Below the pieces are notes generated by a model. The model ran no database searches, had not been told where the DNA came from, and saw nothing but the letters and a program-made list of their open reading frames with translations. Made by a program: the position numbers and the translations under genes. Shown here in pieces: positions 1 through 58,176 of a stretch of 64,000 bases of DNA. Every line of letters begins with the position of its first letter. Position 1 is the first letter of the stretch. The DNA lies in assembly GCA_048885925.1 (NCBI GenBank), contig JBHLLG010000001.1:3105-67104 (forward strand), read 5' to 3'. The stretch comes from Candidatus Hermodarchaeota archaeon. Lineage in GTDB: Archaea > Asgardarchaeota > Lokiarchaeia > Sigyniarchaeales > SOKP01.

Positions 1-520
1 ATATCTATTTTTGGTAGAGTTGTATCATCATCCACTAGACTAATCTTAGTCGTTATAGTGGTTGTTAATGAATCACCTGGTCTATCATTATCATTGTCTG
101 TTGCGCTAAAAGTAAAATCATGTGTTCCTAAACTATTAGGTACTGGATATATTCCAGTTGGATCAGCAAAAAGTCCTGAAGCATCTGAAGCTGATACTAC
201 AAGGGTTCCAGGATTTCCGTCAGTACCATCTCCAGTATAGCTAATATCTATTTTTGGTAGAGTTGTATCATCATCCACTAGACTAATCTTAGTCGTTATA
301 GTGGTTGTTAATGAATCACCAGGTCTATCATTATCATTATCTCTTGCAATAAATGCAAAAACATATGTTCCTAAACTATTAGGTACTGGGTATATTCCAG
401 TTGGATCACCAGAAAGTCCTGAAGCATCTGAAGCTGATACTACAAATGTCCCAGGATTTCCGTCCGTACCATCTCCTGTATAGCTAATATCTATTTTTGG
501 TGGAGTAATATCATCATCAA
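1..520 (-). repeat. Coding tandem repeat, period 243 bp (81 aa), at least 2 full copies, truncated by window edge
   Basis: atatctattttttgg-type anchor recurs at 1, 244 and 487; unit DDDTTLPKIDISYTGDGTDGNPG...ATDNDNDRPGDSLTTT. Confidence 0.95.
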
Positions 521-44555: not shown

Positions 44556-44927
44556 ATGATGTTTAAAATGGAAGAGGAAGAAGAAGGAAATAAATTAAGC
44601 AAGCAAGAACTAGAGTTATTCTATGAAGTGTTGTTTAAAAGGATACTGGACATAATGAAAAAACCAGAAATGGAACAAGACCCTTTTGGAGAAATGATAA
44701 ATAGACTTTCTGTATTATCGGGGATCTTTAGTTTTAGAGCTATGACTTCTTTGATTCCTGAGTTAATCGCAGCTGCTGTAAAGTATGGAATGATGATCGA
44801 ACAAGCATATGAAGAAGAACAATTAAATTTAGATGAAGATATACAAGGTTTTGATGAAGAGGGAGGGATACGAAAACGTATTTCTAAAATTCAGGAAGAT
44901 GTTGATAAATTAAATATTTATTTATAG
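44556..44927 (+). CDS. Acidic helical hypothetical protein
   Basis: 123-aa ORF with protein-like composition filling the gap. Confidence 0.75.
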   Translation: MMFKMEEEEEGNKLSKQELELFYEVLFKRILDIMKKPEMEQDPFGEMINRLSVLSGIFSFRAMTSLIPELIAAAVKYGMMIEQAYEEEQLNLDEDIQGFDEEGGIRKRISKIQEDVDKLNIYL

Positions 44928-45026: not shown

Positions 45027-47144
45027 TTACTGATATTTGCTTTTAAAATCCTTTAATTTGTTCATTACTTGATCATATAAGGGGCCAACAATGATCTTTT
45101 CTCCAAGAGCTTTTAACTCTTTTGCGTAGGCTAAAATTTGGTGAAGAACTGGTCCAGGTGGAAATTGATCTCTTTTACTTTCTAACAAATTTCCTAAAAC
45201 TTCACTTTTTGGAGCTCGATCAACAACCTTATATAAATCAATAAATAAATCATGTAATTTTCCTGCTTGAGAACTAGCAACGTGAGCTTTTGGAACCTCT
45301 GTACTAGTAGAGGCGCCTCCAGACATACCTGTTGCTTCAGAACTTCCTCGACCTAGAACCAGAACTTGGGGTTCAGACCTAGGATAATCACCAGTACCAG
45401 AACAATTATAGTTAATACTTATTGAAGAACCTCCTTTTACTTCTGGAATTTTTATCTGTAATTCAGATTCATCACCTGTTTGTATAACTTCATGTGTTGC
45501 CCTTGGAGGTGGAGTAAATTCTGTTAAACTAAATCCAGAAGGTATGAGATCTTTAACAATTAAATTTTCTAATTCCACATCTCCTTTGTTTTCTACTCTA
45601 ACAGAAATGCTGAATTCACCTTCATTCAGTCCTGGTTTAATACTTTTAAGTGTTTTAAGTTTACGTTTTACATATCTAACCTTTAACTCAGGCTCTACTT
45701 CTGAAACTCTTCGAAGAGATTTACCTTCTATAGGGCTGTTAATTTCTATTTTCAATGGTGTCATATATTGAGTTTCTGAGGGTGGACGTGGATTTCTTGC
45801 CAATAAGGGATATGAAACAATCAGCTTTTTATTAGGAAGAAATTCATTTGAAAGATTAAATAACTCAACATAAATCTTATGCATTTTAGAGAAATCTTGA
45901 TCACCCGGATCTATTAGTATTTTTTGAATATATTCATTTCTAGAACTTATATCAGCTTCTCCTAAATTGATTTTAATTTCCTTAACTAATGGAGGTACAA
46001 AATCAGCTGGAATTTCATCTAATAAAAAGCATTTTTCAATATTAGAAGACCCATTGTTTAGAATATTATTTGTTATTGTCATTTTTGTATTAGCATAGGC
46101 ATCTACTTCTGCAGGATCTATTAACTTTTCAACAGAAGCACTTAAAACAGTGTATAGAGAAGATTCTTTCGTTATTTCACCTACAACTCTTGGAATTATA
46201 ACATATAATGGTGTAAATCCAATTTCAGAGCTCAATTCTGGAATATCTTTTGCTTCTACCTGAAAACTAAAATACCATGAGTCCTCTGGATTTAAAACCC
46301 TATCAGGAGTCTGGGAAACTACCGTTTCAGTACCAGTTGTAATTTTTTGTGAGACTTTTATATCTTCAAGCTTTACTTGAAATTCAGACTCGTTAATAAA
46401 TTCAATATTACAATCCCACATTCCTGGTTGAGATCCTTCATCTCGATCGATCCCACTCATAGAATCTGTGTCTCCACGAACTTCTGGATTTATCATGGTT
46501 AATTTATAATTATTAATCATATAAGTCACATTTAAAATACCAAGTGCTTGTTCACTCCTTTCTTTTATATTAACCGTAAAATAGATTTCTAATTCAGCCT
46601 TATTGTTTCCCTCTAATGAAGTAACATCCCAAGATAAAATTCTTTTTCCTTCCTCTTCTTTCAATGTGGCTTCACCTAAGCTAGGTTTTCGGAACTCGAT
46701 TTCTTGAATAAATTTAGGTATCTCCCTAGTTACTTTAATATCTAAAATAGGTAAATTTAAAGGATTATTTAGAACAATTTTTAGGCTACATTTATTATCG
46801 CTTTGAAAATGGAATGTATTATTTACTATTCCAGGGAGAGAAACATCCGTATCAAAGATTTCTTCGATATTTAAACTTGGTCCTTTTAAATCTTTAATTT
46901 CATATTCTTGTATAAATTCTTGAGTAGGATTTAGAGCTCCAACAGTTAATTCTTTTGTCCCGATAGATGTATTCACAGTTTCTTTAAGATTACAAATCAA
47001 ATTCCATAGTCTACTTCTCTGTGAAGGATTTTTTATGACTAATTTTCCATTTCCAGTAATATTTTTTAAATTCGATAAACCATCTAGAATTATTTTTTCA
47101 TAGTCTGTGATATCTACAACTATATTTTGCAACATTGTTATCAA
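45027..47144 (-). CDS. Cytoplasmic multi-beta-sandwich protein with putative N-terminal mu-homology-like domain and C-terminal helical bundle
   Basis: 705-aa ORF, no signal peptide or TM; repeated N.G...L.N....D.IP Ig-like motifs; start may be the ATG at 47135. Confidence 0.8.
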   Translation of the reverse strand: MITMLQNIVVDITDYEKIILDGLSNLKNITGNGKLVIKNPSQRSRLWNLICNLKETVNTSIGTKELTVGALNPTQEFIQEYEIKDLKGPSLNIEEIFDTDVSLPGIVNNTFHFQSDNKCSLKIVLNNPLNLPILDIKVTREIPKFIQEIEFRKPSLGEATLKEEEGKRILSWDVTSLEGNNKAELEIYFTVNIKERSEQALGILNVTYMINNYKLTMINPEVRGDTDSMSGIDRDEGSQPGMWDCNIEFINESEFQVKLEDIKVSQKITTGTETVVSQTPDRVLNPEDSWYFSFQVEAKDIPELSSEIGFTPLYVIIPRVVGEITKESSLYTVLSASVEKLIDPAEVDAYANTKMTITNNILNNGSSNIEKCFLLDEIPADFVPPLVKEIKINLGEADISSRNEYIQKILIDPGDQDFSKMHKIYVELFNLSNEFLPNKKLIVSYPLLARNPRPPSETQYMTPLKIEINSPIEGKSLRRVSEVEPELKVRYVKRKLKTLKSIKPGLNEGEFSISVRVENKGDVELENLIVKDLIPSGFSLTEFTPPPRATHEVIQTGDESELQIKIPEVKGGSSISINYNCSGTGDYPRSEPQVLVLGRGSSEATGMSGGASTSTEVPKAHVASSQAGKLHDLFIDLYKVVDRAPKSEVLGNLLESKRDQFPPGPVLHQILAYAKELKALGEKIIVGPLYDQVMNKLKDFKSKYQ

Positions 47145-47331: not shown

Positions 47332-48144
47332 GTGGTTAAAATAAGATTTTGGAATATTGTAGAAAATTATAATAATTTAATGAGTTCTGCAATCGAGGGA
47401 CCAAATTGTAAAATTGTTTGTAATGGTGATTGCTGTTCAATTACAATCGATGTCCCCAAAATTTTAGCAAAAGAATACATTAAACGAGGATTTGCTACCA
47501 AGGATGATTTCATAAGAAGTAATGTTTTTAGTTTTAAATTAAGATTCGACGAAAATAAACGAAAATGTTTCCTATTTGATAAATCTATTAATGGATGTAT
47601 AGTTCATAATTCAGGTATCAAACCTCCACAATGTTGGATTTATCCTACTAATTTTTCAAATCCAGAAAATAAGGATATAAGTTGTAAAAAAGTTAATGGT
47701 TGGAAAATAATAGATACACAAAAAACTAAAGAAGCTGAAAAATTATTAAACTACTATGTTTTTTTATGCCAGCTCGAGGCCAAAAAAGAAATCAAACAGG
47801 TTCAGAATAGATTATCGATAAGCATATTTGAAAATTCTTTAAAAACGATATTAAAAAGCACTATTCCTCATCAATTGGCTGGATTTAAAGATACATGGGA
47901 TAGGATAACAATTCTCTTAGCACAAGGTATATCCTTACAAATAGAAAAATTTTGTAAAAAATATAATAAAACATGCGATTATATTAAGAATCATAACTTT
48001 TTAGATTGTCAATCCATTTGTGAAAAAGTATCACAAGGATTATTAGAATTTCTAGAACAAAAATTATATAAATATATACAAAAACATCCAAATGGTGAAG
48101 GAGAATATCCCTTATTTAAATTAGATGAATTAGATCATAGCTAA
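47332..48144 (+). CDS. YkgJ-like Cys-cluster (zinc/iron-chelating) protein
   Basis: CxxxCxxxCC, C.LFD....C.VH and KPPQCWIYP motifs. Confidence 0.85.
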   Translation: MVKIRFWNIVENYNNLMSSAIEGPNCKIVCNGDCCSITIDVPKILAKEYIKRGFATKDDFIRSNVFSFKLRFDENKRKCFLFDKSINGCIVHNSGIKPPQCWIYPTNFSNPENKDISCKKVNGWKIIDTQKTKEAEKLLNYYVFLCQLEAKKEIKQVQNRLSISIFENSLKTILKSTIPHQLAGFKDTWDRITILLAQGISLQIEKFCKKYNKTCDYIKNHNFLDCQSICEKVSQGLLEFLEQKLYKYIQKHPNGEGEYPLFKLDELDHS

Positions 48145-48299: not shown

Positions 48300-48677
48300 T
48301 TGTATTCAATGTCATTAGGAAATAAAAGTCTAATAGAATTAACGAGAAATGTTTTTTCCGAAAAATATGATTTTATTAATGGTCCAATACAATATAAAGG
48401 AAAATCAGGCAAGTTCTGGACTTTTGATGCAATTGTGAAAAATAAAAGTAATGCATTTGGGATCTTTATTCGTGATTGGAAAAGAGAAATTTCAATCACA
48501 CAATTAAGGCAACTTCATAAAGCCTGCCTTGATACAAAATTAGTAGGGGGAATCATGATTTGTAATGTTATTACAGACTTTTCTCGTGAATACAGCTCAC
48601 AGTTTGGAATTCAATTACTCTCAAAAGGCCATCTTATATCAACATTACGAAGAAGGAGAGTTCAAGACGATTTTTAA
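48300..48677 (+). CDS. Mrr-like restriction-endonuclease-fold protein
   Basis: GKSG..WTFD, GGIMIC and ..SSQFGIQLL patterns; start may be the ATG at 48309. Confidence 0.7.
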   Translation: MYSMSLGNKSLIELTRNVFSEKYDFINGPIQYKGKSGKFWTFDAIVKNKSNAFGIFIRDWKREISITQLRQLHKACLDTKLVGGIMICNVITDFSREYSSQFGIQLLSKGHLISTLRRRRVQDDF

Positions 48678-48892: not shown

Positions 48893-49186
48893 TTGATATT
48901 TGTTTACCAATTTAAGGAAGAATTACAAGATTTTGAAGAAATCGAAGTAAAAGAAAATGTACCCTTATTTGAATTATTAAATTCAGATAAAATTCTCCTT
49001 TTTGTAAATCAACATGATCAGAAAGTTTGGATGTGGGAGGGAGCAAATACAAATCCAAGAATGAAGTTTATAGCAGCACAAGCAGCTCCACATGTAAGAG
49101 ATAAGCATGATATAACTTTTACTATTACATCTGTTGATGAAAACAATGAGACTGCTGCTTTTAAAATACTGGTAGGACTCATTTAA
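48893..49186 (+). CDS. Single-domain gelsolin-like protein
   Basis: LNSDKILLFV, VWMWEG, KFIAA and SVDENNETAAF match the gelsolin repeat consensus. Confidence 0.85.
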   Translation: MIFVYQFKEELQDFEEIEVKENVPLFELLNSDKILLFVNQHDQKVWMWEGANTNPRMKFIAAQAAPHVRDKHDITFTITSVDENNETAAFKILVGLI

Positions 49187-51737: not shown

Positions 51738-53486
51738 ATGATAATTAGAATAAATTCTCTCGAAAGTACAATAGAGATTTTTTATGAAAAATATATCCAT
51801 CTTCATGGTTTCATAAAACTAGAAGCTAAAGATGAAAAAGAAAAGAAAGAATATACAATAATTATTCAAATTTTAAATGAACAAACAATCTCCGATTATG
51901 TTTTAACACGCCAGAAGTTAAAAAATGTAAAAATTACAGATTATATTACAGCTGAATTAGAGACCGAATTACAATATGTAATTCAAGGACGTCCAATTAT
52001 TTGTACAGAATTAGATACAAAATTAAACAAAAAGACTGATCATACGATAAATGTATTTTTTATTATTGAGGATTTGATGGAAAAGGAGATATTAAAACCT
52101 CATTCTATGAAAATTTCAGAAACTCAAGATGATAGATCAGCATATTTAAAAAAAATCTTTAATCCAGAAGGAATTTTCATGGGAAAATTAGCATCAGAAG
52201 AAAGAGTTAATGTGTTTTTTCCCTATAAATATTTAATGTATCATTTTTTTATAGCCGGGGCGACAGGGATGGGAAAATCAAACTTAAATCAAGTTTTTAT
52301 AGATGGATTACTCCAACATAATGCGGAAGTAATTCTGAAGGGTAAGGGAACGAAAACTTCAATGTTAGCAATAGATATGCATGATGAATATGCACTTGGT
52401 TGTATAAAGCATGGTGTTAATGATATATGTAAAGCAACTCAGTATAATAAGAATCTATTTGGAAAATGGTTTTATCTTTACCCAAATAAAGGAATTCCTC
52501 CTGCTGAAATAAAAAGTATGGCAGAGCCCTGTATTATTAATTATCAAGAAATTAAACCAGAAGATCTTTTTGCAACAGGATCTTTTAATGATCTACAAGT
52601 AGGAGCGATTTATTCGGCTTATAGAAGTGATTCTGAAAATTATATAGAGAATTTGTTATCCGATGGCTATAGGCCACCAGGAGGTCATGATGATAAAACT
52701 ATGGCAGCAATTAGGAGAAGAATGCATTGGTTAGAATTTTCTGATATGTTTCAATCCTATGCAAGTAGTAAATTACCAAAAATTGTAAAGAAATTAGAGA
52801 AAGGTGGTTTGATCATATTTAACTCTTCAATGATATCTGATTTAGAACAATTTTTATTCAATAGTGTTTTAGCAAGAACACTATTTGATATCAGAAAATC
52901 TCTTAAATCATCAACAGACCTGCCAATGTTGGAGAAAAAATTTGAACAAACTTTACCTAAGAATTTCTTTAACAATTATAAAGCTAATGTTAAAAATATC
53001 TATGTAAAAACAGGTAATTCGATAAAAGAACCAACAGAGATGCCAATAATTATTTTCACTATTGAAGAAGCTCCAAGTATTTTACGGCCAGAGTTGATGA
53101 AGTATAACAATGTATTTAAGGATATATCACGCCAAGGCAGAAAATTTAATTTAGGTTTAGAAGTTATATCCCAACAATACTCCCCTATTGATGATACTAT
53201 TTTATCAAATATGAATACAGTGATTAACCTCCCTTTAAGATCTGATACAGAAAAAGCTATTGCTGCTAAAATATTAGGTGGTGGTATTCAATATAGTGAT
53301 CTTGAATCATTAACTGGAACGAGAGGAATTGCTTTAATCTCTGGTATTTGGCTCACTAATTTTCAGAAATTAAAAATTCCATTATATGATGATTATTTTA
53401 ACTTAGTCTCAAAAAAATTCTATGAAGAATTCGCAAAAAAGATGGCATCTCAAGGTAATAAACCCCCTCCAACAGGATTACCATAA
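51738..53486 (+). CDS. herA: HerA helicase/ATPase
   Basis: HFFIAGATGMGKS, IDMHDEY, IEEA, RQGRKF and SQQ motifs; operon context. Confidence 0.92.
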   Translation: MIIRINSLESTIEIFYEKYIHLHGFIKLEAKDEKEKKEYTIIIQILNEQTISDYVLTRQKLKNVKITDYITAELETELQYVIQGRPIICTELDTKLNKKTDHTINVFFIIEDLMEKEILKPHSMKISETQDDRSAYLKKIFNPEGIFMGKLASEERVNVFFPYKYLMYHFFIAGATGMGKSNLNQVFIDGLLQHNAEVILKGKGTKTSMLAIDMHDEYALGCIKHGVNDICKATQYNKNLFGKWFYLYPNKGIPPAEIKSMAEPCIINYQEIKPEDLFATGSFNDLQVGAIYSAYRSDSENYIENLLSDGYRPPGGHDDKTMAAIRRRMHWLEFSDMFQSYASSKLPKIVKKLEKGGLIIFNSSMISDLEQFLFNSVLARTLFDIRKSLKSSTDLPMLEKKFEQTLPKNFFNNYKANVKNIYVKTGNSIKEPTEMPIIIFTIEEAPSILRPELMKYNNVFKDISRQGRKFNLGLEVISQQYSPIDDTILSNMNTVINLPLRSDTEKAIAAKILGGGIQYSDLESLTGTRGIALISGIWLTNFQKLKIPLYDDYFNLVSKKFYEEFAKKMASQGNKPPPTGLP

Positions 53487-53512
53487 TAAATTATATAAAT
53501 GTTTGAAGGTGA

Positions 53513-54718
53513 ATGAATATTTCTTTCAATTTTGAATTAATATCTCTGGAAAAATCTTTTGAAGGAAGACCTGAAAGATCAATAGATGATGAAGTTAAAA
53601 AGTTTAAAGAATATATTCAAGAGAGAAGAGTTAAGTGGACAGAAGAAGAAAAGATTGAATTAGAAACAGATAAATTTGACAATGATGAGAGCCTTAAAAA
53701 TACAAATTCCTTATTTGCTGAAATGCCATATAAAATAATTCAAGGTGAATTAAAGGATTTTATCAATGACGATTACAAAATTGTTGGTTTTGACGAGAGT
53801 TCCAATACATTTAGTGGTACCTATGCCAAATTGGCGTCTTTCAAGTTTGGAGAGTGTCAAATCATGCTTAAAAATGGTAAATATGATAAACAGAAAATTA
53901 TGTATAAACCTATAACTGCTTATATCGAAGACAATGAACATAAGCTCATCATCTATAAAACCGTAATTGAAAATTTTATAAAAGCTATAAAGGAAGAGTT
54001 TTATAGAGATAATTTAAAGGATAAGGTAGATAAGCTTATTAATTGGTATGAATCTACCTACAAACAAAAAATAGAAGATCACGTCAATGCTCATGATTTC
54101 TATTATCCCACCTTAGGACATGTTATAGATAGAATAAGAACTGCTGATGAAATTTTAAAAAGCCTTATTAGAATTAAGGATGAAAGTGATTGGGGAAAAA
54201 ACAAAAATGTTGTATTCCTTGGGGATGGAATACAAATGTTCCGCCAACATATTTTTCCTCCTGGGGCTTTCACTGAATTTTTTTATAGATTTATTGAAAC
54301 TTATGATATAAAATATTATAGTTTTTCAAAAACATGTCGTTTACGTGATGCTCAAGGGAATTTTATATTACCTATATGGGCAGAAATCTTGGATAAGCAA
54401 AATTTTTTAGTTGAATTACCTGATCTATCAATCTATACTAAAAGTAAAGCTTATATCACAAAATTACAGGAAGAAAGTTCTGCTCTTAGATTTGATATTT
54501 GTGATTATTTAGATACTAAAGATGCAATTTATGCTCTTAAAAACTTAATTCCTTATTCTCCACGAGGATACCCCTTGAGTTTAAGTGGTGCGCATGAAGC
54601 TAGCACATTATTAGTATCAGAATATAACAAATTAGAGACTGCTTTTTTAGAACTTCAATTTAATAAAAAAACCGAGAAATATGCTCAAGAATGGAGGAAA
54701 AAAGTTTTAGGAGGATAA
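53513..54718 (+). CDS. nurA: NurA nuclease
   Basis: GFDES, LGDG, SFSK and GYPLSL..AH motifs; lies between herA and mre11. Confidence 0.85.
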   Translation: MNISFNFELISLEKSFEGRPERSIDDEVKKFKEYIQERRVKWTEEEKIELETDKFDNDESLKNTNSLFAEMPYKIIQGELKDFINDDYKIVGFDESSNTFSGTYAKLASFKFGECQIMLKNGKYDKQKIMYKPITAYIEDNEHKLIIYKTVIENFIKAIKEEFYRDNLKDKVDKLINWYESTYKQKIEDHVNAHDFYYPTLGHVIDRIRTADEILKSLIRIKDESDWGKNKNVVFLGDGIQMFRQHIFPPGAFTEFFYRFIETYDIKYYSFSKTCRLRDAQGNFILPIWAEILDKQNFLVELPDLSIYTKSKAYITKLQEESSALRFDICDYLDTKDAIYALKNLIPYSPRGYPLSLSGAHEASTLLVSEYNKLETAFLELQFNKKTEKYAQEWRKKVLGG

Positions 54719-54761
54719 ATAATATTCATTATTAGAAAAGATAAAAATAAAGGTATTTAAA

Positions 54762-56072
54762 ATGGTTAAGATAATTCATACGGCTGATACGCATCTTGGT
54801 TATAGAGCAAGAAGAGGGACTATTAATAAATGGGCAATTGAAAATTATTCAAAACCATTTGAACAAGATATTTATGATGCATTTTTACAAATAATTGATG
54901 AAATTTCTCACAGGAATGATATTGATTTTTTAGTTCATTGTGGGGATTTATTTCATCATCCATCCAATTTGAGTTCTTATCCTCCTCTTGAACCTGCGAG
55001 GAGAGTTTTAAAACAAGGTTTAGATATGTTCTTTAATGTTACAAATAATCAAGTTCCATTTATATATATAGAAGGAAATCATGGTATATTTAGGGGATAT
55101 GAATATACTCCTATTGAATCTCATATAAATAAAGAACAATATCCTAATTTATTTTACTTCAAAGAGAGAGATTTATTAGAAGCAATTAAGTTAAATAAAT
55201 CTTTATCCTTAGAATTTCCGGATAAGAAAGTTAAATTTTATTTATTTCCTTATTTTGAGTTCAAAACATTCGAAACTTATAAATCAGCTTATGATAATTG
55301 GATAAAGAATCAACAACCTAATATTAATGATGGATATATCAATATTGCTGTAGCTCATGGTTCTATAGGTGATGAAACTTTACATAATAAGGTTAATTCC
55401 GATGATTTTGGATATGATTATGTTGCTTTAGGTCATGAGCATGGATTAAAGCAATTATCAAGAAATCATTTCTATTCCGGAAGTTTATTACCTATGAACT
55501 TTAAAGAAAGATATGAAAATCAAAGCTATTTGATTGTTGAAATTGATGGAAATACTAAAAAATTGACTATTGAGAAGCGATTCACAGATAACTTATTAGA
55601 AAGACCTTTTGAGATTATACAAATTGATACTAATCCAAAACAATCCACAAAAGACTTGGAAAACCAAATTTATAGGGAATTAGATAAATTCATAACAAAA
55701 GAAGGTTTTAATTCGAAAACATCTGCGAGGCTAAAATTAAGTTTTGTAGGCGAAATAACATATGAGAAAAATTGGCAGATAAATGAGCTAATATCTAAAA
55801 TAAGAAGGGATTGTTTTTCTCAACCTGAAAAATATAACATATTACAATTAATCTGGAAAATATCTGATATATCTGAAAATTTTGAGCATGATATAAGTGC
55901 AGGAATGATCCAAGATTATATCTTGGAAAAACCTGATGATGAATTTAAGGAATTTGTGCAAGAAAAATTAAGAGAAGATAAAACTCAATACAATTTAGAT
56001 AAATTAAGCGAATTTGGTATGAAAGCAATTAAAAAAGCACTAAAAATAATGGAGAAGGAGAAAGAGGTTTGA
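54762..56072 (+). CDS. mre11: Mre11 nuclease
   Basis: ADTHLG, GDLFH, GNH, AHG, ALGHEH and YSGS motifs. Confidence 0.93.
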   Translation: MVKIIHTADTHLGYRARRGTINKWAIENYSKPFEQDIYDAFLQIIDEISHRNDIDFLVHCGDLFHHPSNLSSYPPLEPARRVLKQGLDMFFNVTNNQVPFIYIEGNHGIFRGYEYTPIESHINKEQYPNLFYFKERDLLEAIKLNKSLSLEFPDKKVKFYLFPYFEFKTFETYKSAYDNWIKNQQPNINDGYINIAVAHGSIGDETLHNKVNSDDFGYDYVALGHEHGLKQLSRNHFYSGSLLPMNFKERYENQSYLIVEIDGNTKKLTIEKRFTDNLLERPFEIIQIDTNPKQSTKDLENQIYRELDKFITKEGFNSKTSARLKLSFVGEITYEKNWQINELISKIRRDCFSQPEKYNILQLIWKISDISENFEHDISAGMIQDYILEKPDDEFKEFVQEKLREDKTQYNLDKLSEFGMKAIKKALKIMEKEKEV

Positions 56073-56079
56073 AAAAATC

Positions 56080-58176
56080 ATGCTAATCACCAAAATAACT
56101 TTTAAGAATTTTATGGGGTATAAACAATTGAATTTACCAAGAGGAAATGATGAGTTACCTGAAGGTCTAATATTAATAAGTGGTAAAAATTCACATGGAA
56201 AATCAACAATTTTAGAAGGATTATTATTCACATTTTTTGGTCCCAAAGTTTTCAAAGGGCGAAATGCTGCTTCGTTTATAACCTATGGTGCTCAAGATAA
56301 AGCGGAAATTTTTATTTATTTTACTCTAGATAAAGAGAAGTACTATATTTATCGAAAATGGGGAAGAACTGGAAGTGTCTCTACTAAATTATTCCAACTT
56401 AATAAAAATAAGAATATTTATCAAGAAGTTAAACAATTTGATGTAGAAGATTTTTTTGAAATTTCAGCTGAGCAAGCGTTAAGTACTGTATTTGTAAGGC
56501 AAGGTGAAGTAGAAGAGTTAGCTAATAAAAAAGGAGCTGAATTAAGAGATATGATTATTGATTTGTTTAGATTGAATATAATTGATGATGCCCTTTCTTA
56601 TTTAGATAATGACTCAAAAGCAAAAAGACATGAAAAAGAGAAATTCGAAAAGTTAAGAGTACCAATCGAGAGAATCGATGAAGATATTGACCGTATTAGA
56701 AAGGAAAATGTTCAATTAGAAAAGGCATTAACAGAAAAAAAAAATAAAAAACAGGATTTTGAACAAAGAATTAGAAATTTCCCCTCTAATGAGTTAATTT
56801 TAGAATTGGAAAATTTATATAATCAAAATGACATTATAAAGAATAAATTTTTATCATATAAAAAAGACTTTAAAACCAAATTTAAGAATACTGATCTACA
56901 GATAGAAGATTTTGATTCCCAAGATACAATTAAGAATAAAATAAAAAAACTTAATAAGGTTCAAAAAAATGTAGAAGAGAAATTAAATGAATTAGATAAG
57001 AAAAGGCAAGCCACGTTTAAAGGCTTAGGAAAAACTAAGGGGAGAGTTGAAGAGATTAAAAAAACCATAAATAAAATGGAAAGAAGTTTAAAATTTACTA
57101 AGAGAGTAGAAGGAAGGGAAATTGCTCAATGTCCTACTTGCCAGAATGAATTAACAAAGGAGCATTATGATGAAATGATCAACAATTACAATAAAGATAT
57201 TAAGATAAATCAAGAGAAAATTAATTCTATCTCCAAAATAATATCTGATTTTGATATTGAAATTAGCTCAATTCAAAAAGAATTAGACAATATAAAAAAA
57301 AACATCACAATTCACCAAGGATTGAAGGAGGATTTTGAAAATTATAAGAAATATGAGTCAGAATTAAAGAAAATAGAAAATGAATTAAACAATTTCCTTT
57401 CAAAAAATAGAACTAAGTTTTTAGATTCAAGTTTAGAAGGCGTTAAAAAATTGTCAATTGAAAAAGAAAAATTATCAACAGAATTAAGATCGATAAATGA
57501 TGAATTAAATGAAAAACAAGAGAAAATGAAGAAAAATCAAGGTAGGACGGAACAATTACAACATGAAATTCAGAAAATGAAAGAGTTAGCAAAAAAGATA
57601 GCGGAACATGAAGTAGATATTGATCATATTAATAAAGCAAAGGAATTTGTACGTAGATTTGTAACTGAATACATGGTAGTAAAACGCCTAGTCAAAAATA
57701 TTGCTTTAACCACCAATAAATATATTAAAGATTTTACTACAGGACAATACAGCGATCTATTACTTGATTTAAGTGGAACTAGAAAAACAGGTTTATCTCT
57801 AAAAATTAGAGATAATTTTAATGGTGAGTATGAATCCACGGAAGTTTTATCGGGAGGTGATTGCACTGCTTTAGGGATCGCTTTACGTCTAGCCATATCA
57901 GAATTAATGAGTTCAATTCGACCTACAAAAGAATCACCGAAAAGAAACCCTAAAATTGACTTTCTCCTATTAGATGAGCCCCTAGCTGCATTAGATGAAA
58001 CTCGAAGAGAAAGAATACTTAAACACCTAATAAAATCAAGGTCATTTTCTCAAATATTCCTTATAACTCATACTGCCATTCCCCAAGATATTCCTGCTAA
58101 TAAAATAGTTGTTGAAAAGGATTTAAGTACAGGAATTAGCCATGCAAGATTTGAAAAACCTACACTAAAAATCTAA
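56080..58176 (+). CDS. rad50: Rad50 SMC-like ATPase
   Basis: NF, GKNSHGKST, RQGE, CPTC hook, LSGG, LLDEP...LD and ITH motifs. Confidence 0.93.
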   Translation: MLITKITFKNFMGYKQLNLPRGNDELPEGLILISGKNSHGKSTILEGLLFTFFGPKVFKGRNAASFITYGAQDKAEIFIYFTLDKEKYYIYRKWGRTGSVSTKLFQLNKNKNIYQEVKQFDVEDFFEISAEQALSTVFVRQGEVEELANKKGAELRDMIIDLFRLNIIDDALSYLDNDSKAKRHEKEKFEKLRVPIERIDEDIDRIRKENVQLEKALTEKKNKKQDFEQRIRNFPSNELILELENLYNQNDIIKNKFLSYKKDFKTKFKNTDLQIEDFDSQDTIKNKIKKLNKVQKNVEEKLNELDKKRQATFKGLGKTKGRVEEIKKTINKMERSLKFTKRVEGREIAQCPTCQNELTKEHYDEMINNYNKDIKINQEKINSISKIISDFDIEISSIQKELDNIKKNITIHQGLKEDFENYKKYESELKKIENELNNFLSKNRTKFLDSSLEGVKKLSIEKEKLSTELRSINDELNEKQEKMKKNQGRTEQLQHEIQKMKELAKKIAEHEVDIDHINKAKEFVRRFVTEYMVVKRLVKNIALTTNKYIKDFTTGQYSDLLLDLSGTRKTGLSLKIRDNFNGEYESTEVLSGGDCTALGIALRLAISELMSSIRPTKESPKRNPKIDFLLLDEPLAALDETRRERILKHLIKSRSFSQIFLITHTAIPQDIPANKIVVEKDLSTGISHARFEKPTLKI

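Follow-up and report, generated by a model that had tools for sequence, protein, structure and literature searches.

A predicted complete mu-homology domain in a five-module protein of an Asgard archaeon

Does an Asgard archaeon encode a genuine relative of the mu-homology domain (MHD), the cargo- and partner-binding module of adaptor-protein (AP) complexes, COPI, muniscins and TSET, or does a reading frame that looks like one simply stack generic immunoglobulin (Ig)-like folds? The question is raised by a gene in a 64,000-nucleotide (nt) stretch of a Candidatus Hermodarchaeota genome (contig JBHLLG010000001.1, positions 3,105 to 67,104 of the forward strand; hereafter the window). The initial annotation, made from the letters and translated open reading frames (ORFs) alone, had proposed an MHD-like N-terminal part for the product of this gene. 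Our structure predictions and profile comparisons showed that residues 4-328 of the predicted protein correspond to a complete two-lobed MHD, genuinely though distantly related to those of AP mu subunits, delta-COP and muniscins. This interpretation is strongly supported at the level of the fold and adequately at the level of the sequence. The fuller reading, in which the complete MHD and the Ig, linker and helical-bundle modules that follow it make up a stand-alone cytosolic interaction scaffold that is not a subunit of an AP or COPI coat, has a probability of about 60% in our estimate, its functional part being the part that we infer. The gene and the domain are placed as follows.

45027..47144, minus strand: the whole ORF of the MHD-protein gene, 705 amino acids (aa) counted from a TTG codon, stop codon included (ORF list)

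46161..47135, minus strand: the mu-homology domain with both subdomains, aa 4-328 (AlphaFold2 domain model, VIA-align, Foldseek, PF00928 and profile matches to PDB chains)

AlphaFold2 modeled aa 4-331 alone with high confidence (predicted local distance difference test [pLDDT], 96.5; predicted template modeling score [pTM], 0.87). When this model was compared by VIA-align with 48,161 PDB representatives, without a Foldseek prefilter, ranks 1 to 10 were all MHDs (Z 12.7-16.1; root-mean-square deviation [rmsd] 2.7-4.0 Å), with 210-228 residues aligned of chains 242-285 residues long (428 in one case). The closest was AP-2 mu2 (Z 16.1, rmsd 3.5, 228 of 252 residues aligned), in which model residues 1..325 corresponded to mu2 169..435, followed by AP-3 mu3A (Z 16.0), AP-4 mu4 (15.9), a mu2-FCHO2 chimera (15.7), the AP-2 core (15.2) and AP-1 mu1 (15.1). 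The mu MHDs of AP-1 to AP-4 (9fiw_M, 2pr9_A; 4ikn_A; 4mdr_A; 1w63_M) thus resembled the model over the whole domain (Z 15.1-16.1, rmsd 2.7-3.5 Å, 210-228 aligned). The same fold was found in delta-COP (bovine 4o8q_B, Z 14.7; yeast 5fjw_A, Z 13.3) and in the muniscins SGIP1 (5awr_A, Z 14.4) and Syp1 (3g9h_A, Z 12.7), these four spanning Z 12.7-14.7 with 215-219 residues aligned. Superposed as one rigid body, the N-terminal model matched solved MHDs of eight distinct protein types over 85-92% of their residues.

The lists beyond these ten rows, and those obtained with the whole-protein model, bear on a surface-protein alternative, in which the product would be a cell-surface adhesin or envelope protein and its likeness to an MHD a convergent variant of stacked Ig sandwiches. 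Generic multi-Ig arrays did lead the Foldseek list of the whole-protein model, where mu2 and mu3 MHDs appeared from rank 16. With the aa 4-331 model, on the other hand, all 40 of the 40 Foldseek matches listed were MHD chains, and in VIA-align the first non-MHD row, rank 11 (Mfa5), fell to Z 11.4 with 121 residues aligned; all later non-MHD rows covered 100-140 residues, that is, one sandwich, against the 210-228 of the ten MHDs. VIA-align on the whole model again paired residues 3..328 with mu2 168..435, the entire MHD (Z ~15.3, rmsd 3.2-3.6 Å, 218-229 aligned), and MHD chains made up 35 of the 50 matches listed. Simple tandem Ig domains lacking the two-subdomain MHD topology, the outcome that the initial annotation had named as fatal to its own proposal, were not what AlphaFold2, VIA-align and Foldseek returned.

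Sequence comparisons pointed in the same direction. Pfam PF00928 (Adap_comp_sub) matched aa 97-216 against positions 104-226 of its 259 (E 8.8e-7, 29.0 bits), and the same family appears in the precomputed record of P0002, a database protein of 702 aa that is 99% identical to the window protein. A six-frame PF00928 search of the whole genome returned the MHD gene as its sole match (30.7 bits), while none of 14 control genomes matched. A single-sequence phmmer search against the PDB returned nothing useful. At E<=0.001, 245 relatives were recovered by a word-indexed search. The best 120 of them were ~700 aa long, 57-99% identical and, where named, "hypothetical protein" entries from metagenome-assembled genomes of the Promethearchaeota/Lokiarchaeia type; these source names support the Asgard origin of the stretch. 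When 1.84 billion cluster representatives were searched exhaustively with HMMER, the relatives numbered 311 at E<=0.001, of which 209 reached E<=1e-10 and 60 reached E<=1e-30, and 92 members chosen from them formed the family alignment used throughout.

The profile built from these 92 rows gave 25 matches at E<=10 when run against all PDB sequences, and 22 of them were MHD-bearing chains of AP-3, AP-4, AP-2 mu and delta-COP (best E 0.0014), the other three being a gamma-adaptin ear, a fimbrial subunit and a designed protein. These matches fell in two colinear patches, positions 10-62 on the start of the MHD (AP-4 mu, delta-COP) and positions 144-247 on its end (AP-3 mu 293-396). Among 67 diverse relatives scanned singly, 30 matched PF00928 at E<=0.01 (best 1.9e-10), an independent sequence signal that, together with the PDB chains recovered by the profile, speaks against convergence from stacked Ig sandwiches. 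Taken together, the Pfam match, the two profile patches and the structural ranges showed a segment order colinear with that of MHDs from the first strand to the last.

The limits of the domain differ from those first proposed. The initial annotation had held that the first ~220 aa follow the MHD order; the segments that it quoted do lie where it placed them, whereas the domain itself runs from aa 3 or 4 to 328. Its length of ~325 residues compares with ~250-270 in eukaryotes. Because aa 1-216 correspond almost one-to-one to PF00928 positions 1-226, and because the last strands continue to match the C-terminal ends of all MHDs, the alignment ranges suggest that ~80-100 surplus residues lie between approximately aa 217 and 300. 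By the same ranges, the best-conserved block of the protein family would fall within this region of extra residues; its conserved positions are E236, P240, W243, C245, F249, N251, S253, F255, W290 and P302.

46239..46439, minus strand: the most conserved motif block of the protein family, aa 236-302 (conservation counts in the 92-row alignment)

The start of the protein is most likely the ATG at 47135, which would give a product of 702 aa, because 83 rows of the family alignment, out of the 85 that are ungapped in the column of aa 4, show Met in that column, and because P0002 is itself 702 aa long. Hydropathy revealed neither a transmembrane segment nor a signal-peptide-like N-terminus (maximum of 1.10 in a 19-residue Kyte-Doolittle window, mean of 0.13 over the first 30 aa), a simple test made without a dedicated predictor, and agreed with the absence of a signal peptide reported initially. 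The isoelectric point (pI) was 5.07 for the whole protein, 4.63 for the MHD and 9.19 for the C-terminal bundle. The AlphaFold2 model of the whole protein, made with the 92-row alignment (mean pLDDT 94.3, pTM 0.73), was all-beta over aa 8-596, passed through a low-confidence linker at 601-618 (pLDDT <50) and ended in four helices within 624-704, in agreement with the beta-sandwiches, the Ser/Gly/Ala linker and the helical bundle that had been read from the sequence after the N-terminal part. The product is therefore a soluble, acidic protein of five modules, of which four follow the MHD.

45666..46145, minus strand: a second beta domain with the Ig-type fold of Gram-positive pilins and adhesins, aa 334-493 (VIA-align on the whole model)

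45354..45659, minus strand: a DUF11-type Ig-like domain, aa 496-597 (PF01345, TIGR01451)

45276..45353, minus strand: a flexible linker rich in Ser, Gly, Ala and Thr, aa 598-623 (pLDDT <50 at 601-618)

45030..45275, minus strand: a basic C-terminal four-helix module, aa 624-705 (AlphaFold2 model; pI 9.19)

The two Ig-like modules supply what favors a surface location. Residues 334-493 matched Sgo0707 (4igb_B) with Z 14.4 and rmsd 2.7 over 138 residues, as well as BcpA (3rkp), SpaD (4hss) and PilA (8wxd) with Z ~14 and rmsd 2.4-3.0 over 136-140, and PF01345 (DUF11) matched aa 510-578 above its cut-off (E 2e-7; 31.8 bits against 24.6), with TIGR01451 at E 5.5e-6 and DUF11 matched by 65 of the 67 relatives. 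DUF11 and pilin-type Ig domains usually indicate the cell surface. Unlike surface pilins and adhesins, with which it shares the fold of aa 334-493 and the DUF11 profile, the window protein lacks a signal peptide, a sortase motif and any membrane anchor, and its Ig domains stand in the middle of the chain. Generic DUF11/Ig folds, which the initial annotation had kept as its alternative, fit aa 334-597 only and leave the N-terminal 328 aa unexplained. Combined with the whole-domain superpositions described above, these features make the surface-protein alternative barely credible. An isopeptide bond in the pilin-like domain was considered and dropped, as the conservation list holds no conserved Asn or Asp near the last strand.

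Faint similarities to adaptin appendages were seen around the DUF11-type domain. Residues 511-605 (~45330..45614) matched AP3B1_C at E 0.012, as did 4 of the 67 relatives, one of the 67 matched Alpha_adaptinC2, and the gamma-adaptin ear 1gyv_A was reached at E 0.072; these probably reflect generic Ig-fold similarity. The published Alpha_adaptinC2 candidates, considered as kin of this domain, proved to be a different and unrelated zinc-ribbon family of ~330 aa.

The helices of the C-terminal bundle span 624-642, 647-656, 665-679 and 687-704. No further copy of the bundle was found in its own genome, and a comparison with the ESM Atlas gave no usable match. A two-copy complex prediction of aa 612-705, run without controls, scored 0.00 against a mark of 0.42 and weighs neither way. 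Since orthologues of other classes are ~593-626 aa long, with matches that reach no further than about profile position 618, the linker and bundle are an addition of the order to which the window belongs, and the bundle is absent from most other classes.

Could the protein instead be a genuine counterpart of the medium subunit in a primitive coat of the AP/COPI type, with the longin-type sigma and HEAT-repeat large subunits of that coat encoded elsewhere? The completeness of the MHD fold would suit such a role, as would the HEAT-repeat ORFs of the genome that touch PF01602 and the presence in Asgard archaea of all five AP domain types, unfused (Eme et al. 2023, Nature 618:992; PMC10307638, in the part of the paper used here). 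However, the MHD alignment begins at aa 3-4, so that there is no space for a longin upstream, and none was found at the N-terminus. When the genome, which is 95% complete, was searched for AP-type partners, PF01602 (adaptin large chain) gave four weak HEAT-type matches and also matched 3 of the 14 control genomes, Bacillus subtilis included, which marks these matches as generic. PF01217 (sigma/longin small chain) matched nothing in the genome and nothing in any control genome either, so that this search is uninformative. No coat-type gene was a conserved neighbor of the MHD gene in the loci examined.

The tyrosine (Yxx-phi) pocket of mu2, whose residues we take to be D176, K203, W421 and R423, was also sought. 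The register was drawn from alignment end-points (residue n of the protein corresponding to mu2 n+165) and assumes ungapped terminal strands; mu1, mu3A and mu4 agree with it by their own ranges. In this end-point register, position 11 was Asp in 26 and position 38 was Lys in 32 of the 92 rows, and neither a Trp nor an Arg was conserved at 314-316, suggesting that the pocket is no family-wide trait of these sequences. With no longin, no family-wide Yxx-phi pocket apparent in this register and no sigma or specific large-subunit partner detected, we conclude that the window protein is most likely no medium subunit of an AP/COPI-type tetramer, and we regard the primitive-coat alternative as very unlikely.

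Within the window's own order, the same end-point register gave D11 in 16 of 17 rows, K38 in 17 of 17 and Tyr or Phe at 314 in 17 of 17, with no Arg. This retention of pocket-register residues is a lead only. It raises the rather improbable further idea that the own-order orthologues are self-contained cargo or partner adaptors that keep Asp11, Lys38 and an aromatic residue at 314, and whose tethered basic bundle might place the protein at a membrane. If true, a prokaryote would possess a single-chain sorting adaptor of the muniscin type, and this protein would offer a living model of the pre-eukaryotic MHD at a stage before its fusion to a longin.

The architecture differs from that of eukaryotic mu subunits, as the initial annotation had anticipated: there is no longin, and Ig domains, a linker and a bundle come after the MHD. 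Relative to AP mu, the MHD is ~100 residues longer, only 8-12% identical and acidic, and three more modules lie C-terminal to it. In muniscins, an MHD is linked via a disordered linker to a helical module, and the window MHD is likewise tied through a disordered linker to helices. Unlike in muniscins, the order is reversed, the MHD being N-terminal and the helices C-terminal, two Ig domains intervene, and the bundle of ~80 aa is not an F-BAR domain; the Pfam scan of the window protein gave no BAR-type match.

To assess the distribution of the family, its profile was run against 300 genomes sampled evenly across the Asgard phylum. Members were found in 279 of the 300 genomes and in 66 of 70 genera (79 of 90 high-quality genomes), and in none of the 4 and 3 genomes sampled from two small-genome families of the phylum. 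The window genome holds three members. A maximum-likelihood tree built from 22 rows placed the window gene among orthologues of its own family and order (support 97/99) and left the two paralogs apart from the 20 core rows, on long branches, a position to be read with the usual caveat on such branches. The window gene was thereby shown to belong to the core orthologue group of a protein family that occurs in nearly all sampled Asgard lineages. One of the paralogs in the same genome, of 668 aa (L003:1297-3303, contig C14), lies directly downstream of the end of a cheA-type gene (L003:58-1239; H-kinase_dim, HATPase_c, CheW).

The gene stands by itself, with neighbors on either side on the opposite strand. 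Its surroundings in the window are unrelated housekeeping genes (an HhH-GPD glycosylase, a rhomboid, PCMT, DJ-1, a PEMT/ICMT-like methyltransferase, a URO-D-like protein, UvrD and a HerA/Mre11/Rad50 cluster), and they were compared with 19 other loci, seven from other genera of its taxonomic family and 12 from outside that family. Three rows of the feature list belong to this neighborhood.

47332..48144, plus strand: divergent neighbor c2, 270 aa with Cys-rich motifs (its relative in locus L023 weakly matches the CxxCxxCC family PF03692, E 0.0011)

48300..48677, plus strand: neighbor c3, 125 aa, which follows c2 and has no family match

51738..58176, plus strand: a cluster of a HerA-like ATPase (DUF87), a 401-aa protein without a family, an Mre11-like phosphoesterase and a Rad50-like ATPase, 4.6 kilobases (kb) from the MHD gene

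The pair c2 and c3 stood beside the MHD gene in six of the seven loci from other genera of the taxonomic family and in none outside it. A 123-aa convergent ORF at 44556..44927, tried as the counterpart of a small convergent gene (c11) of other classes, was unrelated to it (BLASTP E 0.39) and adjoined the MHD gene in none of the 19 loci. Gelsolin-type proteins are a known kind of Asgard actin regulator, and a 97-aa ORF at 48893..49186 (plus strand), 1.7 kb from the MHD gene, encodes a single domain of this type, matching the solved 94-aa "Gelsolin-like domain-containing protein" 7c2f_B at E 8.6e-5, as well as 2DGel3 (7c2h_G), and Pfam Gelsolin at E 0.0013 (19 bits, the cut-off being 21); it likewise adjoined the MHD gene in none of the 19 other loci.

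Outside the taxonomic family, a different neighbor recurred. In 8 of the 12 loci (L032-L035, L037-L039 and L041, all of other Asgard classes), a Lactamase_B_3 gene of the metallo-beta-lactamase (MBL) fold, 229-267 aa long, directly preceded the MHD orthologue in the same orientation, at a distance of ~70-90 nt. The MBL-fold protein is thus likely, from gene order, to be an ancestral partner co-transcribed with the MHD orthologue in other classes, the linkage having been lost at the window locus. In five loci of another class (L034, L035, L037-L039), a HerA-like/Metallophos cluster adjoins the MBL-MHD pair; the HerA-like gene near the MHD gene both there and in the window suggests an old remnant of synteny, not a function, and this synteny in turn suggests that the window gene and the operonic MHD genes are orthologues by position.

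From this gene order it might be argued that the window protein, without catalytic activity of its own, targets or regulates a small MBL-fold hydrolase whose gene has been relocated in the window lineage. The conserved upstream gene and the remnant HerA-like synteny would both fit such a partnership, and its own genome does contain one Lactamase_B_3 gene of similar size (L042:1489-2136, ~205 kb from the MHD gene; E 8.8e-9 to an operonic Lactamase_B_3 gene, Pfam E 2.8e-24). Yet no Lactamase_B_3 gene is adjacent in any of the eight own-order loci (the seven of the family and L029) or at the window locus. A reciprocal search returned the MHD-adjacent gene as best match in just two of five genomes, as second in two and not at all in one, so that the unlinked gene is no secure orthologue of the operonic genes and is probably a paralog. 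We consider this hydrolase-partner explanation unlikely, while giving it some weight.

The reading that we prefer remains a complete MHD on a stand-alone cytosolic scaffold. By analogy with eukaryotic MHDs, the MHD platform would bind a partner protein or a short peptide motif, the rigid Ig array would act as a spacer, and the tethered basic bundle may serve as a docking or membrane-proximal module. The two observations just made, the lack of an adjacent MBL gene at the window locus and the insecure orthology of the L042 gene, weigh against this reading too, and several others must be set beside them. The PF00928 score of 29.0 bits lies below the gathering cut-off of 31.6, as does the 30.7 bits of the six-frame search, and 37 of the 67 relatives gave no PF00928 match at E<=0.01. 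Identity to solved MHDs is just 8-14%, and deep homology therefore rests on profile and fold. The positions of the extra residues and of any groove come from alignment ranges, not from model coordinates. Function and partner binding are what we infer by analogy. The mu2 MHD bears basic lipid-binding patches, and with a pI of 4.63 for the window MHD, direct membrane binding by this domain is doubtful.

The idea of an Asgard MHD is already catalogued in print. Eme et al. 2023 (PMC10307638), in the parts of the article and its supplement used here, report that the functional domains of AP and COPI subunits all have Asgard homologues, "albeit sparsely distributed," the C-terminal mu-subunit domain being among the AP domain types detected. 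Their Supplementary Table 3 gives 44 rows under Adap_comp_sub/PF00928, of which rows 2-39 (38 of 44) were compared here. Four of these rows (14, 25, 31 and 33; Lokiarchaeales, 703-712 aa) share the length, the N-terminal strands and the W-D-C-x-x-E-F-I-N-x-S-x-F block of the window protein and, compared by eye without an alignment, appear to be orthologues of the window gene, while about six of the 38 (3, 4, 5, 8, 27 and 32) look unrelated to the MHD family. A short-motif search for a counterpart of the AMARA_1S row among the proteins collected here gave no match. Two Heimdallarchaeum relatives are, moreover, named "MHD domain-containing protein" in UniRef. Because Table S3 lists close orthologues and UniRef names relatives as MHD proteins, the novelty of the idea is low.

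Other sources touch on the subject from different sides. In the portions used here, a 2021 preprint (10.1101/2021.04.02.438162) reports a mu/sigma longin-type domain and not the MHD, a 2026 article (Nat Microbiol; PMC12962969) mentions adaptor-protein homologues merely as patchy, and a 2026 preprint (10.64898/2026.10.28.762692) does not treat the MHD; keyword searches of the literature brought up no study on the structure or function of Asgard MHDs. Where the 2023 listing, as far as the parts used here go, was made by Pfam/InterPro and called sparse, the present analysis compared the fold, described the domain limits and architecture, and found the family in 279 of 300 genomes.

A genuine MHD family that is near-universal in Asgard archaea bears on the origin of vesicle-coat adaptors, a point that already stands in the literature as a domain listing. 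To it are added here a strong comparison at the level of the fold, corrected domain limits and a distribution far wider than the published "sparse," together with an operon link to an MBL-fold protein in other classes and a C-terminal bundle specific to the order.

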